From a virus: a stretch of 19,219 nt of DNA. The position numbers were made by a program, and so were the translations under genes. The DNA is taken from the UHGV virus genome UHGV-0267650; one strand, given 5' to 3'. Of this stretch, positions 1,046 to 11,765 are shown piece after piece. The notes below the pieces were generated by a model. That model was not told the DNA's origin. It saw nothing but the letters and a program-made list of their open reading frames with translations, and made no database searches. Each line of letters opens with the position of its first letter. The stretch's first letter is position 1.

Positions 1046-2749
1046 TCAGGCAATAATGTTCTGGTACTTGCTCCGGGTTTCTCCGGCTTTCGTGGCGGTC
1101 TGCGTGAATGATGCCGCATTGGTCGGTGTGCCGACGCTGGGGTGTGAGTGACTGGCGCACTGCCTTGCCAGTTCTGCCAGTAAATCAATGGTATCCAGCA
1201 TCATGGTCAGGGCGTTGATACTCTCGCTGCCAATATGGACAGTTGCCCCCATGACCTGCTGACCGCCAGTGGCCACCGATTTACGTAATGCGGCAATCTT
1301 TTCTGTCAGGGTTCCCCCCACATCAACATCCACGGTGCCGGCTACTTTCGTGGATTGTTTGCCAGTTATATCGGCTTCGTCATTCCCCTCAATGCTGGCC
1401 AGCCTGTTACCTTTCACCGCCTGGCTATAATCACCGGCGCTTACCTGCTGGATGGCTCCGGCCAGCAGTGTGGCGGTTCCCAGTACCGTAGTTTTATCCG
1501 TGGCTTTCACCGTGGTTTCACGGCTGACCAGTTCGCGCTGTTCTGTATCGGCTTTTACAGTTCGCACCATTGATGTTTCGCTGATGGTCTGATCGGTCTG
1601 CCTTACCCAGTCCCCCGCCTGAGTCACTCTCTGGGATACTTCTTCCCGCTGCTGCTGTAATTGCTCACCGGGTTTAACGTCCGGCAGACTGGTGCCATCC
1701 GGTAGCGTCTGCCTGATAAAGGGTTTATCCGGTCTGCCTCCTGTGAATGCGACCTCAACCAGCGTCCCTTCTGGCGGGAACTGAAACATACCTGAATCAT
1801 TCCCGGCCATTGGTACCGGCAGCGGCACCGCTGAATAAACAGGCGTCTGATTGTCCGGGTTTCCGTCTGCGTCAAGCAGCTGAACGTCCACGGCGTAACG
1901 TGGACGGAAGGGATCGGCAAAGTTACCGCTTTTTACCGGCTCTGAATGCGCCACGACTCTGGCCATCTTTGGCAAATGAAGCCCGGATGCCAGTTCCGGG
2001 TAATGGCTTTCAATCTGCCGTTGCGCCGGTGTTTTCTGCAAAGGTTTACCCGTTGCGCGGTTTCTCGGCGTCCATGTGATCGCCATCGTGTCATTCGTCA
2101 GGTGAACTTTAGTCACGCGTTCACCGTTCATCTCCACCCCTGGCCGCATAGTCTGGATCACTGGTAATGTCACAGAGTTACCGCCAGCAGCCCCCTGGCT
2201 GAACTCTGACGGGATTTCTACGGGACGACCGGCAAATAATGACTTTTCTGCGCCGCCGACGTAAAGCGAACCATCAGGCAACTGGTACCAGATGTAATCC
2301 AGGATACTGAACGCCCTGCCCAGATTGTTCAGCAACTGATAACCTGTACCGTTATGGGTAAAATGTGGGATGGGGGTATCGCTGTACTGTGCATCAGGCA
2401 CACTGACCGTGATCCCGCTGTTTTCTTCCAGCCAGCCCGCAATTTCACGCAAAGTCGGGTGTTGAAACGAACATGGCCACATCCTTTCAAACACACCTAC
2501 CAGCTCACGAATGAACAGACGCTGAAAACCTTTTTCCGCGGGCTGCGATCGCTCCACATACCCCGTAAACCAGCGCAAAAGCAGATCGGTATACCCCACA
2601 TCCAGCCGCACCAGTTTTCCGGTGTAATCGGTTGTTGTCTCTGCGGTGATGAAGCCCCGGCCGCAGTTGTTCAGCTCCAGTACCAGGCTGGCGTCCGCCA
2701 TGTGAACTTCATCCGTTGAAAGGTAAAGGCGTTTTACTGGTTTCATCAT
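1046..2749 (-). CDS. Baseplate central spike protein: gpV-like OB-fold and apex in the C-terminal half, with a ~300-aa N-terminal extension of unknown identity (possibly hub-like)
   Basis: 567-aa ORF, last gene of the operon. Residues ~321-345 PPEGTLVEVAFTGGRPDKPFI resemble the OB-fold motif of P2 gpV as I recall it (PSVGEQVLILAVGGELDTAFV). Near the C-terminus ASHSHPSVGTPT resembles the gpV apex motif HTHKHPGDSGGTTGSP. Its start codon overlaps the stop of the upstream ORF. Confidence 0.6.
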   Translation of the reverse strand: MMKPVKRLYLSTDEVHMADASLVLELNNCGRGFITAETTTDYTGKLVRLDVGYTDLLLRWFTGYVERSQPAEKGFQRLFIRELVGVFERMWPCSFQHPTLREIAGWLEENSGITVSVPDAQYSDTPIPHFTHNGTGYQLLNNLGRAFSILDYIWYQLPDGSLYVGGAEKSLFAGRPVEIPSEFSQGAAGGNSVTLPVIQTMRPGVEMNGERVTKVHLTNDTMAITWTPRNRATGKPLQKTPAQRQIESHYPELASGLHLPKMARVVAHSEPVKSGNFADPFRPRYAVDVQLLDADGNPDNQTPVYSAVPLPVPMAGNDSGMFQFPPEGTLVEVAFTGGRPDKPFIRQTLPDGTSLPDVKPGEQLQQQREEVSQRVTQAGDWVRQTDQTISETSMVRTVKADTEQRELVSRETTVKATDKTTVLGTATLLAGAIQQVSAGDYSQAVKGNRLASIEGNDEADITGKQSTKVAGTVDVDVGGTLTEKIAALRKSVATGGQQVMGATVHIGSESINALTMMLDTIDLLAELARQCASHSHPSVGTPTNAASFTQTATKAGETRSKYQNIIA

Positions 2750-3294
2750 TAACCCAAAGCATCATTGACGGGCTTCAGCACCTTGCGTTCAAACCACGTC
2801 AGTTTTTCTTCATCCTCTCCGGCAGACTGGCCACCGGACTGTCCCGCACTACCGGCAGTTTGTTTTTTTGCGGTCGTCTTACCTGTTGCCCTGGCCTCTC
2901 GCTTTTCCTGCACGCTGATATGTTCCGCCAGTGTGAATGTCACCAGCCAGGACATTTTCCCGTCCTGCTGGGGTGCATCCAGCATCCCGCTGAACGTTGC
3001 TTCACGAAAATTAACAGCACGGGCAACTTCATGCGCCACGCGGTACTTCTGACGATTACCACTGGCATCGGTAGCACTGGCCAGCTCAAAAATACGCTTG
3101 AGTATTTCAGGCTGTTTAAAAGGTATTTCCCCGCTGATCCGCAGTTCCTTTCCCTTTGCTCCCTGCTCTGATTTTGTTGTGGCGCTGGTCTGGCCGGACT
3201 GATCTTTATCCTGAAACTGCTGTGAAACAGTCACCCGCATGTTTTTCAGCTGGATGGCCTCGCCATTAAGCGCCAGTGTCGGGATCGAAGTCAT
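2749..3294 (-). CDS. Hypothetical protein within the tail operon (181 aa), function unknown
   Basis: Long - strand ORF packed between neighbours; overlaps the upstream ORF by 29 nt and shares position 2749 with the start of the spike gene. Contains a low-complexity Q/S/T/G/K-rich segment. No family recognised. Confidence 0.45.
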   Translation of the reverse strand: MTSIPTLALNGEAIQLKNMRVTVSQQFQDKDQSGQTSATTKSEQGAKGKELRISGEIPFKQPEILKRIFELASATDASGNRQKYRVAHEVARAVNFREATFSGMLDAPQQDGKMSWLVTFTLAEHISVQEKREARATGKTTAKKQTAGSAGQSGGQSAGEDEEKLTWFERKVLKPVNDALG

Positions 3295-3991
3295 GAATCA
3301 TTCCCTTTATTCCATCAAGATTATCGCCAACCAGCATCATTGCAGCGGTGTACACGGCAGACTGCTGCGGAATGTCCTCCACCAGTTCCAGTAACGTGGT
3401 GCCGGTGTCTCCGCTGGCAGTAAAAACCCACGCTCTGGCACTCTTCCCCTGTAAATCATTCAGGCCGCTGGCCACATCACTGATAAGCTGGTCACGCATC
3501 TGCGTGAACTCGCCCAGCTGTTTTTTCAGCCCTTCGATATCAAACCCGGCACCCGCCGCCTTTTGTGCCTGGCTGATTGCCGCAGCAGATAAAGCTGCCC
3601 TGCTGGTTGGTACAGACAACGGAATGGGCGCAGGTAACGCAGCGGCGGTTTTCGCAGGGATCTGCATCTTTTCAATAGCCAGCGCTGCGGCGGATTGCGC
3701 CAGCCGTTTGACCTGTGTGAATGCCGGGGCGGGGAAAATCCCGACCAGGTTATTCAGGCTGGCCATAAAGTTTTCCTGTGTCTGTCCGGTGACCATCATA
3801 ATCACCACGTCCACATTCCCCCCTGTTCCGGCCAGGCGTTCAGCAAGATAGCGAACAGCATTAACCGGGCTGAGATATGCCCCGTTTGCTGTCTGCTGTC
3901 CCAGCCCATAAATCCACGGATGCGCAGGGACGATCGAACAGTTCAGCGCAGCAACAGAATCCGTGAAGGCCAGACGTGCTTCACGCCACAT
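3266..3991 (-). CDS. Hypothetical protein within the tail operon (~241 aa), function unknown; apparently two domains joined by an Ala/Pro-rich linker
   Basis: The ORF track gives 3266..4027, but the ATG at 3991 is preceded by GGAGG at about -9, so I prefer it as the start. It overlaps the Tfa stop by 11 nt. Ala/Pro-rich linker AAALAIEKMQIPAKTAAALPAPIPLSVPTSRAALSAAAIS. No family recognised. Confidence 0.45.
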   Translation of the reverse strand: MWREARLAFTDSVAALNCSIVPAHPWIYGLGQQTANGAYLSPVNAVRYLAERLAGTGGNVDVVIMMVTGQTQENFMASLNNLVGIFPAPAFTQVKRLAQSAAALAIEKMQIPAKTAAALPAPIPLSVPTSRAALSAAAISQAQKAAGAGFDIEGLKKQLGEFTQMRDQLISDVASGLNDLQGKSARAWVFTASGDTGTTLLELVEDIPQQSAVYTAAMMLVGDNLDGIKGMIHDFDPDTGA

Positions 3992-4568
3992 TTCCAGGCA
4001 CCTCCGGCCACACAATTTCCGGCGCATCTTCCGGTTGAATACGATTCAGTAAAACGCGGAATTTTTTCCATGCAGTAAGCAGTAGCGCTTCTTCTTCGGT
4101 CGCCATGTCAAAATCAACGGCATCCTGCAATGTGGCAATGGCATCATTGGCCTGTTTAAGCAGTCTTTTCTTTTCGGCGTCTGCCTCGCTGACTAATGCA
4201 ATTCGCATGGCCTCCGCATCATCCATCCACGCCTTACCATTCCATTTTTGCCAGGCATTAGCCGGTGCTGACGTGGTTGTCCCTTCCGGGTAAGCGCCTG
4301 GCTCGGTGATCACCAGTTCATTACCGTTTTCTGTATCAAACACCACCTCACCACGGTGATCCTCACGGGAAATCCATCTTTGCTTCTCTGAATCAAAAAT
4401 CGCCACAAATCCCGCTTTGATTGCCGGTGGCTTTATCGTGGTGCAGTTAGCTGGCAGTCCGGTATGCGCAGGAATAAAAGCATCACCCGAACCAATAAAT
4501 TCATTCGTATCGGAACGCAGGTTATAAACAGTAACTGTTTGATCGGTTTCACTCATTTTAAAAGTCAT
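3981..4568 (-). CDS. Tail fiber assembly protein (Tfa / P2 gpG-like chaperone)
   Basis: 195-aa ORF immediately downstream of the tail fiber gene, sharing position 4568 with the fiber stop. Size, position and general sequence character fit the tail-fibre assembly family; called from memory, not from a search. Confidence 0.6.
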   Translation of the reverse strand: MTFKMSETDQTVTVYNLRSDTNEFIGSGDAFIPAHTGLPANCTTIKPPAIKAGFVAIFDSEKQRWISREDHRGEVVFDTENGNELVITEPGAYPEGTTTSAPANAWQKWNGKAWMDDAEAMRIALVSEADAEKKRLLKQANDAIATLQDAVDFDMATEEEALLLTAWKKFRVLLNRIQPEDAPEIVWPEVPGNVA

Positions 4569-6142
4569 TATGCGAGTCTCACTATGTAGTTAAATGCAAT
4601 ATTCTTAACGGTCGTTTCTGCGTTGCCCGACGCGACGACGGTAATGGTGTGACTGTGTGCGCCAATGGCTACGGTATGAGAGTGAGCGCCAATACCTACG
4701 GAGTGATTATGTGCGCCAATGGCTACGGTGTGCGCGTGGTTTCCCGCTGAACTGGTATTTACGGTATATGCAGTACCACTTCCGCCTGCTGATCTGGCTA
4801 TTCCTGAACCATCAGTGCCTCGCGTGGTAAAACCGTGTGCGTGCGCCCCTGTCGTATTTGTCGTTTTTGTACCGTGGTCAAACGTACTCGCCGTTTTAGT
4901 ACCGTAATCAAATGAGGATGTTGATTTCGTTCCCAGATCGGTACTTGATGCACTGGCAGTGTGAGCATGGGATTTATTGCCATCATCTTCACAGGACAAT
5001 ACTGCGCGGCCATCTGGTTTTCCTTTGATTGTCTGGCGGCGCATGTCAGTAATAACACCCGATGGATACGCAGCAGCCAGCAAAGGATATGCCGCTGTAT
5101 TAAAAGACTGCCCTTGCATAATTGCCCATCCAGTAGGTGGGATATCTGTTGGCCAGGGAAGCGGCACACCAACCGGCAGAACATCACTACGACTTAAAAC
5201 GGCCAGTTCACCCAGATCCAGGCTTTTTCTTGCCTTTACCTTGTCGTTAACATCAGCAAGGTTTGCATCCTTACGCAAAAAATCGATGCTGGCCTGCTGT
5301 TCTCCCAGGTTACCTTTTGGCCGTAAATCCGTGATGTTGCCATCCACATCAATGCTGGCCACCGCAAACACGTAATGCTGAACCCCGTTCTGAACGTAAT
5401 CAGCAAGATTTGCTGCCACCGTGATTTTGCTCTGCACATTCCAGACACTAGTCAGTGTCCCTGTCCAGCACACATCCAGCCAGACTTTTACCGGCTTTGT
5501 CGTCACCGTAATATTCTGGTTCGCTGCCAGTGACGCACGAAGTCCAGCCACATAACCCGTGCCTTTCGTGACAAAAAACTGATTGCCGGTTTTGGCTACC
5601 AGATACCCGTCACCAAAAAACGCCGCCGCGCCATAAATATCCATATTTTCCAGGCGCTGGCGCTCATCCATTCCGGCCATACGCGCGGTGAAATCAATCT
5701 GCCAGGTTTCAGCAGGCGTACTAATCCCGGTTTCCGTCTGTGCGCCGTTGTACTCCATCAGAAACGAGCGGGTCAGCACGTTTCCCTGTTGCCCTTCTTT
5801 TGTTTTCAGTTTCTGCTGTGATGGTGCATGGACAATCATTGCCAGCGTACCGCTGGCCTTATTGAGCAGACCGATCCAGTTAAAACTGAAATCACCCACA
5901 TCTGCGCCCAGCACTACGGAATAAACCACCCCATTTTCATTCACCACACCCGTGCGGGTAACAGCCTGCCGGTGAACAATCTGTGCTGTCGGGGGTAACA
6001 CTTCATTACGGTCAACAGGTGTATCCGGGTTTAAATCCGGCACACTGGCAAATACAAATTCGTCCAGTAGTACCGGTTCACCCGTAGCGCCCTGTTGCGC
6101 TTTCCAGTTTTCAAATGCCAGTGTGATGGCTGTCTGTGACAT
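4568..6142 (-). CDS. Tail fiber protein (P2 gpH / Mu gpS-like N-terminus; His-rich repeat C-terminal tip)
   Basis: 524-aa ORF with AAGGAG about 8 nt upstream of the ATG. The N-terminal ~100 aa resemble the conserved N-terminal domain of P2 H / Mu S fibers. The C-terminus carries tandem 11-aa repeats rich in H-x-H ([32 protein letters not shown]), and the gene is followed by a Tfa gene. Confidence 0.75.
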
Positions 6143-10652: not shown

Positions 10653-10938
10653 AAATAACGTTCTCTCTTAAATTAATTTCATCAACAAGCGCGTTATGCC
10701 GTGCAGCACACTGCCCGTATAACTCCAGATAAAGTGTCAGTAATTCCGCCGCGTCTTTTCCCTGCGTTCCACTCAGGCGCGGCAGCTGCGTGGCGCATTT
10801 AGTTTTCAGGTTTTCCTGATAACGTACGTTCGGTACTGGTGACGGCGTCGTTGTACATGCGGACAAAGTCATCAGACAGACACTTATTGGTAAATACCGG
10901 CTTAACCACTTCCGTGCGGATTTCACGCGGTGGCGCAT
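10639..10938 (-). CDS. o-spanin (outer-membrane lipoprotein, Rz1/LysC-like)
   Basis: 99-aa ORF that starts inside the i-spanin gene in another frame and extends beyond it. It has a signal peptide with lipobox LSAC followed by a Pro-rich segment (TTTPSPVPNV), typical of o-spanins. Confidence 0.6.
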   Translation of the reverse strand: MRHRVKSARKWLSRYLPISVCLMTLSACTTTPSPVPNVRYQENLKTKCATQLPRLSGTQGKDAAELLTLYLELYGQCAARHNALVDEINLRENVIYGKN

Positions 10939-11131
10939 TTTTCAGTGCCTCCAGTTTGTCTTCCAGCCGGCGACCAGATGAACCGGCAATTTCAGCCAGT
11001 TGTTCCCCGGTCGCGGTGACCGCTTTTGAGACAGTCAGATCAACACTGTCCCGCTGCCAGCCGGCCGTTTTCCAGCCGGCTATAAATGCCAGAGCAAGGG
11101 TGAATAACCAGCCTGACACGACGCGATCCAT
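10799..11131 (-). CDS. i-spanin (inner-membrane, Rz/LysB-like)
   Basis: 110-aa ORF with an N-terminal transmembrane segment (VVSGWLFTLALAFIAGW) followed by a charged helical periplasmic region. Lies directly downstream of the endolysin with a 1-nt overlap. Confidence 0.6.
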   Translation of the reverse strand: MDRVVSGWLFTLALAFIAGWKTAGWQRDSVDLTVSKAVTATGEQLAEIAGSSGRRLEDKLEALKNAPPREIRTEVVKPVFTNKCLSDDFVRMYNDAVTSTERTLSGKPEN

Positions 11132-11472
11132 CAGCGCACCCCGTTATGTTCCAGGCTGAAATGATTACCATCAGGGCGGGATTTGAAGCGACCGCCCCAT
11201 GAACCACCCAGCGATTCCCAGTATTCACCCAGCGGCAGATACGCCGCGCTGTCGGTCTGATACTGGCCATTAATGAACAGATTGAAGTCCACGGCCAGAC
11301 GCTGCGTGTGCAGACTGCTGGAAATGCCGCTGCCTTTTTTCGCGTTCAGTGCAGCCTGTTCCGGGGTACGGTAAGCCTCACCAAACGTCAGCCGGTAGCC
11401 ATGTTCTTCAGCCCACTGGATCAGATTTGCCACCATAACGGTAAAGAGTTGCTGTTTTTCGCTCAGAGTCAT
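11131..11472 (-). CDS. Endolysin, peptidase M15-type (L-alanyl-D-glutamate peptidase-like)
   Basis: 113-aa ORF containing SLHTQRLAVDF and DGNHFSLEH, consistent with the H-x(6)-D...H zinc-binding signature of M15 phage endolysins. Flanked by a holin and spanins. Confidence 0.7.
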   Translation of the reverse strand: MTLSEKQQLFTVMVANLIQWAEEHGYRLTFGEAYRTPEQAALNAKKGSGISSSLHTQRLAVDFNLFINGQYQTDSAAYLPLGEYWESLGGSWGGRFKSRPDGNHFSLEHNGVR

Positions 11473-11765
11473 TTCCCTGTCCCTTTATCAAAAATCCCTG
11501 TAAAACCCCGCTTACGCAGCCAGGCTTCCACCACATTCTGTCCCAGAATACCCAACGCGGAGCCAAATCCGGCTAATGCGAGCGGGTGGATATCCGGGAC
11601 AAAGTACAGCGCCACCCCGGCAATCAGTGACAGTCCGCTGCCCACAATGACACGCCCCGCCACCAGGCGAAGGGTGATTGGTTCATCACTGTTGAGCAAT
11701 TTACCCAGCGCAATCAGCGCCCCCATGACTGCCAGTGCAATGAACCCCTTTTCGTACTCCTGCAT
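11469..11765 (-). CDS. Holin (three predicted transmembrane segments)
   Basis: 98-aa ORF with three hydrophobic stretches and a charged C-terminus (RKRGFTGIFDKGTGK). Sits immediately upstream of the endolysin with a 4-nt overlap. Confidence 0.6.
   Translation of the reverse strand: MQEYEKGFIALAVMGALIALGKLLNSDEPITLRLVAGRVIVGSGLSLIAGVALYFVPDIHPLALAGFGSALGILGQNVVEAWLRKRGFTGIFDKGTGK

Follow-up and report, generated by a model that had tools for sequence, protein, structure and literature searches.

We report that the tail fibre encoded in UHGV-0267650, a viral DNA of 19,219 nucleotides (hereafter the window), very probably ends in a module of the T4 gp37 / lambda Stf type, in which His-rich repeats would form a metal-clamped shaft and a receptor-contacting head would be placed before these repeats in the chain. 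The evidence comes from homology to a solved fibre tip, from the conservation of the histidine motifs, from a hypervariable segment between two repeat arrays, and from the copy numbers of these arrays across the family.

The fibre gene and its neighbourhood

The fibre gene occupies positions 4568-6142 on the minus strand, which also carries all features for which coordinates are given below, and encodes 524 amino acids plus the stop codon; it was identified from the open reading frame list and its translation, from Pfam and from the PHROG tail fibre families. The protein combines a P2 gpH-type N-terminus with a C-terminal receptor-binding module of the T4 gp37 / lambda Stf type. The N-terminal fibre domain (Phage_tail_fib, PF12571; 111 bits, E = 6.5e-32) covers aa 3-158 (5669-6136) and presumably attaches the fibre to the baseplate, a role taken from its family. 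Directly downstream of the fibre gene lies a gene for a tail fibre assembly protein, Tfa, of 195 aa (3981-4568; Pfam Caudo_TAP, E = 2.2e-33; PHROG 105), which is likely to be a chaperone for trimerisation of the tip.

Among the open reading frames upstream of the fibre gene, one matches Baseplate_J and another gives a weak match to Tail_P2_I (19.7 bits, under the cut-off of 20.6 bits). The neighbourhood is a P2-like baseplate and tail cluster, whose gene order recurs in ESSI2_ev129. Annotated fibres from ESSI2 Peduoviridae and from E. coli prophages are 87-93% identical to the window fibre in protein sequence. In DNA the nearest relatives (91-95% identity) comprise E. coli prophages together with four induced Peduoviridae phages, ESSI2_ev129, ev015, ev040 and ev239, and the genera of the nearest relatives are Quadragintavirus and Evevirus, both Peduoviridae.

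Homology to the T4 gp37 tip and proposed topology of the chain

A phmmer search against all PDB chains matched aa 321-524 of the fibre to the receptor-binding tip of T4 gp37 (2XGF, chain residues 28-242; E = 3.5e-68), and in a global alignment to the T4 gp37 tip 132 of 204 residues (65%) are identical. The T4 protein is divided into a collar (residues 811-881 and 1010-1026), a stem (882-931 and 960-1009) and a tip subdomain (932-959) (PMC6957217), and chains of the gp37 type double back at the head, such that the needle is a six-stranded barrel (PMC12609058).

With these limits the N-terminal part of the collar domain comprises aa 321-391 (4970-5182), corresponding to T4 gp37 812-881, and the ascending strand of the needle, or stem, comprises aa 392-436 (4835-4969), aligned to T4 882-931. 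The head, or tip subdomain, follows as a segment of 28 residues (aa 437-464; 4751-4834) that is aligned to T4 932-959 and is also marked by its hypervariability. It is succeeded by the descending strand of the needle (aa 465-506; 4625-4750), aligned to T4 960-1009, and by a C-terminal strand of 18 residues leading back to the collar (aa 507-524; 4571-4624) and is aligned to T4 1010-1026, i.e., to collar domain D10. Pfam also recognises the collar (PF07484, aa 325-369; 32.9 bits vs a cut-off of 24), directly preceding the needle, and the C-terminal return strand is nearly invariant across the homologues. The alignment of the descending strand includes the iron-binding HxH motifs at T4 positions 966, 980, 989 and 998, while the middle ascending site of T4, H915/H917, has no counterpart in the fibre; the number and the spacing of the sites hence differ from those in the solved structure. 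Since the T4 domain limits can be transferred through the alignment, the His-rich repeat would be the descending half of the shaft, and the two arrays that the sequence-only reading had listed apart would be the two halves of one hairpin.

For this hairpin, the variable head (aa 437-464), the arrays changing in lock-step and the fit of the alignment to the T4 limits agree with each other, and the only structure model is an unreliable AlphaFold2 monomer. That model, computed for aa 301-524 from a 52-sequence alignment, is of low confidence (mean pLDDT 60, pTM 0.24), and a Foldseek search with it against the PDB gave no match, both of which are expected if the native form is an intertwined trimer.

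The architecture that we propose takes its trimeric state from the family. Three chains would build the collar from aa 321-391 and 507-524, and a six-stranded antiparallel beta needle would project from it, each chain running up (aa 392-436), through the small head (aa 437-464) and down again (aa 465-506). The HxH motifs would face the threefold axis, and the three copies of each motif would place six histidines around one buried metal in octahedral geometry, the metal in T4 being iron. The Ser/Thr/Gly-rich 10-aa repeat would constitute the ascending half, packed against the His-rich descending half, and each rung, the element that sets the length of the needle, would consist of an ascending unit, a descending unit and a metal site. 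Receptor specificity would sit in the head, a cassette that would be swapped within its conserved HxH-encoding flanks, and the adjacent Tfa would assist the folding of the tip.

Two repeat arrays in the fibre

The 32-residue His-rich peptide quoted in the sequence-only reading is found verbatim at aa 468-499 of the minus-strand open reading frame 4568-6142, and the Ser/Thr/Gly-rich repeat of 29 residues that it had placed before this peptide is likewise found, at aa 402-430. Tandem HxH repeats near the C-terminus are thus present, as four units, and what needs revision is the strand and the period, the latter from 11 aa / 33 nt to 9 aa / 27 nt. Tandem Repeats Finder gave a period of 27 at 4655-4729 (2.8 copies, 75% matches), a separate repeat search gave three copies, 27 nt apart, at 4646-4738, and the self-identity of the array at a lag of 27 nt was 0.65, the top value in the 19-kb window (background 0.27 +/- 0.055), compared with 0.44 at a lag of 33 nt.

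The descending array accordingly consists of four 9-aa HxH units (aa 467-502; 4637-4744), the last of which reads GAHSHTITV, and its HxH motifs are located at aa 469-471 (4730-4738), 478-480 (4703-4711), 487-489 (4676-4684) and 496-498 (4649-4657). The upstream, ascending array has a period of 30 nt, with a lag-30 self-identity of 0.62 that is again the top value in the window, and is made up of three 10-aa units of the form D-x-G-T-K-x-x-x-x-F/T (aa 402-431; 4850-4939). These units are flanked by the two ascending HxH motifs at aa 392-394 (4961-4969) and aa 434-436 (4835-4843). Altogether, the six HxH motifs (starting at aa 392, 434, 469, 478, 487 and 496) hold 12 of the 16 histidines of the fibre protein. 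When the residues were shuffled 20,000 times no shuffled sequence reached six HxH motifs, the maximum being four; chance falls far short of explaining the His-rich repeats, which are real.

At the DNA level the descending units are only 56-74% identical in pairwise comparison, and identical residues share their codon about half the time, which argues that the repeat units in the window are old; on this codon usage we rejected the idea that the DNA repeat arose by recent tandem duplication. The longest exact direct repeat is 20 nt and occurs at 4656 and 4710, i.e., 54 nt apart.

Predicted metal sites

The HxH motifs of T4 gp37 coordinate iron along the trimer axis (PMC6957217, PMC12609058, PMC6116203); the T4 tip contains seven axial irons, H929/H931 bind iron, and residues of the tip are essential for infection (PMC6957217). 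In the present fibre all 12 HxH histidines are invariant, both in 52 diverse homologues and in eight close relatives (87-93% overall protein identity, 84-96% DNA identity over the first 900 nt of the gene). The suggestion made earlier that these motifs bind metal in the manner of T4 gp37 is backed by this invariance and by the homology to 2XGF.

By analogy with T4 we predict that metal, probably iron, is bound at six buried octahedral sites, of which the ascending strand would supply two and the descending strand four; that there would be six sites and not seven as in T4 follows from the absence here of the T4 H915/H917 rung. Octahedral HxH iron sites are also present in pyocin fibres and in the P2 spike, and T4 gp12 was solved with zinc in its HxH site (PMC6116203). 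As the gp12 example illustrates, the metal here could be another divalent ion. We also considered H423, the lone histidine in FDHGTK, as a seventh ligand and rejected it, since this residue is Tyr in 8/8 close relatives and not invariant in the family.

The two arrays change in lock-step

The copy numbers of the two arrays were surveyed in 265 homologues, comprising the 120 best hits and representatives at 50% clustering, of which 248 were parsed automatically and 17 by eye. Counted from the first ascending HxH motif, the second lies 32, 42, 52, 62 or 72 aa further on, and these distances pair with two, three, four, five or six nine-residue descending spacings, respectively. This pairing holds in 248/248 automatically parsed sequences and the remaining 17 agree on inspection; an unpaired change in one array was found in none of the 265 homologues. 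The number of descending HxH motifs ranges from 3 to 7 across the family, and two sub-series can be distinguished, one of the type seen in the window (42|9,9,9) and one of the T4 type, which has an extra 14/14 rung beside the head. The 3-rung form present in the window is the commonest (130 of the 248 automatically parsed sequences).

Two of the surveyed fibres, P0016 and P0111, provide a direct comparison. They are 96.8% identical and share the same N-terminus and head, and they differ by an insertion of 20 aa in the ascending array and one of 18 aa in the descending array, seen in the DNA as a clean 60-nt indel paired with a clean 54-nt one. At 75-78% identity to the units next to them, the additional units of P0016 are not fresh duplications.

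The lock-step behaviour of the arrays suggests that a rung corresponds to a 10-aa unit plus a 9-aa unit plus a metal site, and that rungs are gained or lost only as such pairs. We tentatively consider it possible that the arrays obey a strict grammar, with one 9-aa unit for each 10-aa D-x-G-T-K-x-x-x-x-F unit, under which needle length would be quantised and evolvable, each step requiring two coordinated changes, and may tune access to the receptor. The explicit lock-step grammar may be the only new part of what we describe, and the literature examined merely hints at it, in the remark of the Bas63 authors that the number of HxH motifs appears to scale with the length of the needle (PMC12609058). 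As a constraint on needle design, the lock-step rule means that one 10-aa unit and one 9-aa unit would have to be added or removed together.

Could the repeats influence host range?

The reading of the repeats that best survives beside a purely structural shaft is that the length of the needle is itself adaptive and is tuned by whole paired rungs, for instance to reach receptors through surface polysaccharide, in which case the repeats would affect host range indirectly. The discrete series of two to six rungs with its perfect pairing, the paired 60-nt and 54-nt indels between fibres that are 97% identical and have one head in common, and the Bas63 authors' remark on HxH number and needle length (PMC12609058) are all consistent with such tuning. 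However, the 3-rung form of the window is shared by 130 of 248 automatically parsed sequences, and the number of rungs is constant in the window fibre and its close relatives, and we regard adaptive tuning of the length as rather unlikely, if still a serious candidate.

A more direct role, close to the possible switch raised in the sequence-only reading, would be that the DNA repeats form a contingency locus, in which slippage or unequal recombination between the 27-nt units frequently alters the number of HxH motifs and thereby switches host range. In favour of this are the 20-nt exact direct repeat at 4656 and 4710, the differences in copy number across the family (3 to 7 descending HxH motifs), and reported duplications in T4 gene 37 by which Yersinia is added to the host range (Tetart 1996, cited by PMC7002106). 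Yet the units have diverged to 56-74% DNA identity with about half of the codons differing at identical residues, the copy number is constant in the eight closest relatives, no array changes without its partner in 265 homologues, and even the extra units of P0016 differ from their neighbours by too much (75-78% identity) to be fresh duplications. A single slippage would shorten the descending strand by two units, for which the ascending strand would then be too long; since the arrays never change singly in the 265 homologues, a single slippage event would give a mismatched and presumably misfolded needle. The near-identical units, and the copy number varying among close relatives, that characterise a slippage-type repeat locus were not found here. 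The comparison of copy number among relatives that had been suggested earlier thus gave constancy in the eight close relatives and variation in the wider family, there only together with the ascending array. The proposed host-range switch is largely not borne out: a simple contingency switch is unlikely, and we consider it improbable by a wide margin that the locus works in this way, while needle length may plausibly be modulated more slowly, by paired changes.

A hypervariable head between the arrays

Among the eight close relatives the head, aa 437-464, is the sole hypervariable block and has no consensus. DNA identity in these relatives falls to 30-50% only across aa ~431-468 and amounts to 82-98% in the HxH-encoding flanks, and the HxH copy number is invariant among them. 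Host-range mutations in T4 map to the head (PMC5221442), where T4 genetics also puts receptor-contact residues (PMC6957217, PMC5221442); this genetics, together with the hypervariability, suggests that the head contacts the receptor in the present fibre as well.

This location bears on the proposal that the receptor-binding apex is formed by the C-terminal HxH repeats. The repeats are the last conspicuous feature before the C-terminus, and HxH motifs do occur within the T4 gp37 module that is called the receptor-binding tip. In the solved homologue, however, the chain turns back on itself, such that its C-terminal HxH run belongs to the descending stem and its last 17 residues rejoin the collar. 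The His-rich repeats therefore lie near the C-terminus of the sequence, as had been noted, yet the homology to 2XGF puts them away from the physical end of the fibre: in the 2XGF topology they belong to the shaft, an outcome named beforehand as speaking against their being the apex. Moreover, the repeats are invariant among relatives with unrelated heads, whereas the surface of an adhesin is expected to vary and buried metal ligands are not. We accordingly find it highly improbable, even more so than slippage switching, that the repeats form the apex; aa 437-464, lying between the arrays, are the predicted counterpart of the apex. For annotation and engineering, specificity would thus be assigned to the head cassette (aa 437-464; nt 4751-4834) and not to the His repeats, and the conserved HxH-encoding flanks would serve as natural junctions for head swaps.

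How the head varies is indicated by its occurrence elsewhere. A near-identical head, with one substitution, is present in a 317-aa fibre of a Mu-like phage, and this phage shares with the window an 86%-identical block of 737 nt that starts at fibre aa 342 and takes in the first ~60 Tfa codons. The picture is one of cassette exchange, in which the head, or the whole tip together with the start of the chaperone gene, would move between conserved flanks, the repeats not being the variable part. The least probable reading of all, that the variability arises through a diversity-generating retroelement or local hypermutation, could draw on the sharply bounded ~28-aa hypervariable block in an otherwise conserved receptor-binding protein, but we dismiss it because the heads differ in length and show 30-50% nucleotide identity, the level of unrelated sequence, because they carry no adenine-specific substitutions, because the same head recurs almost unchanged in the unrelated Mu-like phage inside the 86%-identical 737-nt block, and because the 25 features annotated within the initial 20 kb of ESSI2_ev129, a related genome, include no reverse transcriptase.

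Comparison with known fibres

The closest solved relative, the T4 gp37 tip (2XGF), shares the collar-needle-head module (65% of 204 aa identical), the presence of HxH motifs in the ascending as well as the descending strand, a variable head at the same position and a nearly identical C-terminal strand of 18 aa. It differs in having seven HxH motifs where the window fibre has six: the extra 14/14 rung by the T4 head adds two HxH motifs, and T4 has only two 10/9 rungs (32,14|14,9,9), whereas the window fibre has three regular rungs (42|9,9,9). The head sequences of the two proteins are unrelated. Furthermore, T4 gp37 is a protein of 1026 aa that uses the chaperone gp38, while the window fibre is short (524 aa) and of P2 type, and its gene adjoins one for a lambda Tfa-type protein.

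With the P2 gpH fibre and its gpG assembly protein (Peduoviridae) the window shares the N-terminal Phage_tail_fib domain and the gene order baseplate J, P2 gpI-like, fibre and Tfa. The likeness to gpH is drawn on the N-terminus and this gene order; the C-terminal module of the window fibre is of the gp37/Stf type. R-type pyocin fibres and the central spikes of P2 (gpV) and phi92 resemble the window fibre in having three symmetry-related HxH motifs around one octahedral axial iron (PMC6116203), but they have one such site in a different fold, compared with six predicted sites along a hairpin needle in the window fibre.

The lambdoid Stf fibres (lambda Stf, and stfR, tfaR and tfaQ of the K-12 cryptic prophages) likewise have this needle module, with a Caudo_TAP Tfa gene after it. 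They differ from the window fibre in their N-terminus, which is a prophage tail fibre N-terminal domain and not the P2 Phage_tail_fib domain, and in their heads and needle lengths, the matched spans being 393-519 nt vs 403 nt here. The module is well known, very common and well understood, and the present fibre is a new but ordinary member of its kind, as is evident from the DNA matches to 4568-4970 in 3,944 of 5,426 complete E. coli genomes (~73%). These matches include features annotated as stfR and fibre genes beside tfaQ or tfaR, and some are from K-12 strains.

Paired copy-number changes and substituted residues in the fibre tip

In all 265 homologous fibre proteins (P0001-P0265), the copy numbers of the 10-aa ascending units and of the 9-aa descending HxH units, which in the window occupy 4850-4939 and 4637-4744, respectively, change only jointly. 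The paired arrays form between two and six rungs among these homologues, where a rung comprises one ascending unit, one descending unit and one predicted metal site, and the homologues fall into two sub-series, one of the window type and one of the T4 type, the latter having an additional 14/14 rung. P0016 (L011:732-1796) and P0111 (L013:1845-2795), which are 96.8% identical at the protein level and 91% at the DNA level, have the same head. They are distinguished by two clean indels, a 60-nt one in the ascending array paired with a 54-nt one in the descending array, and the additional units show 75-78% identity with those next to them.

Two residues of the window fibre, Cys384 (4991-4993) and His423 (4874-4876), occupy positions where all eight closest relatives have Tyr. 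Owing to His423 the window has FDHGTK as compared to FDYGTK, and an H/Y alternation of this kind was seen at the same repeat position in other family members.

Apparent exchange and distribution of the fibre tip

The window fibre tip, including a near-identical head, is also present in a phage (L010) that we refer to as Mu-like on the basis of its baseplate genes of the Mu Gp45/46/48 type. The block common to the two (L010:6403-7139) spans 737 nt (86% identity), from fibre residue 342 to approximately residue 61 of the assembly protein Tfa, and since it extends past the fibre to include the first part of Tfa, this suggests joint transfer of the fibre tip and the chaperone N-terminus. Hence, these two parts appear to be co-mobile between unrelated myophages.

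The needle-encoding DNA (window 4568-4970) has matches in 3,944 of the 5,426 complete E. coli genomes in the ecoli_genomes collection, with 169 of the matches being plasmid-borne. They include features annotated as stfR and fibre genes adjoining tfaQ or tfaR, some of them in K-12 strains, and the matched spans vary between 393 and 519 nt because heads and needle types differ.

Genes close to the fibre modules

A 253-aa ORF (3266-4027, minus strand) is located between the genes for Tfa and for a baseplate protein resembling HP1 ORF34 (2749-3294), and it shares 47 nt with the 3' end of the Tfa gene. Its sole match is PHROG 1677, a family of unknown function, with no match detected in Pfam, and its counterpart in the Peduoviridae relative ESSI2_ev129 is annotated as "putative phage gene". 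In the phages carrying P0016 and P0111, the Tfa gene is directly followed by a gene for a 657-aa Acyl_transf_3 and SGNH protein (L011:2410-4383 and L013:3409-5382), which is likely a surface-polysaccharide acyltransferase and therefore possibly the product of a lysogenic-conversion gene adjoining the receptor-binding module.

Elsewhere in the tail gene cluster, position relative to the ESSI2_ev129 annotation places a putative lysis cassette at about 10799-11765 (minus strand), flanked by the tape-measure region on one side and tail tube/sheath genes on the other, with a putative holin (~11469-11765), endolysin (~11131-11472) and Rz-like spanin (~10799-11131).
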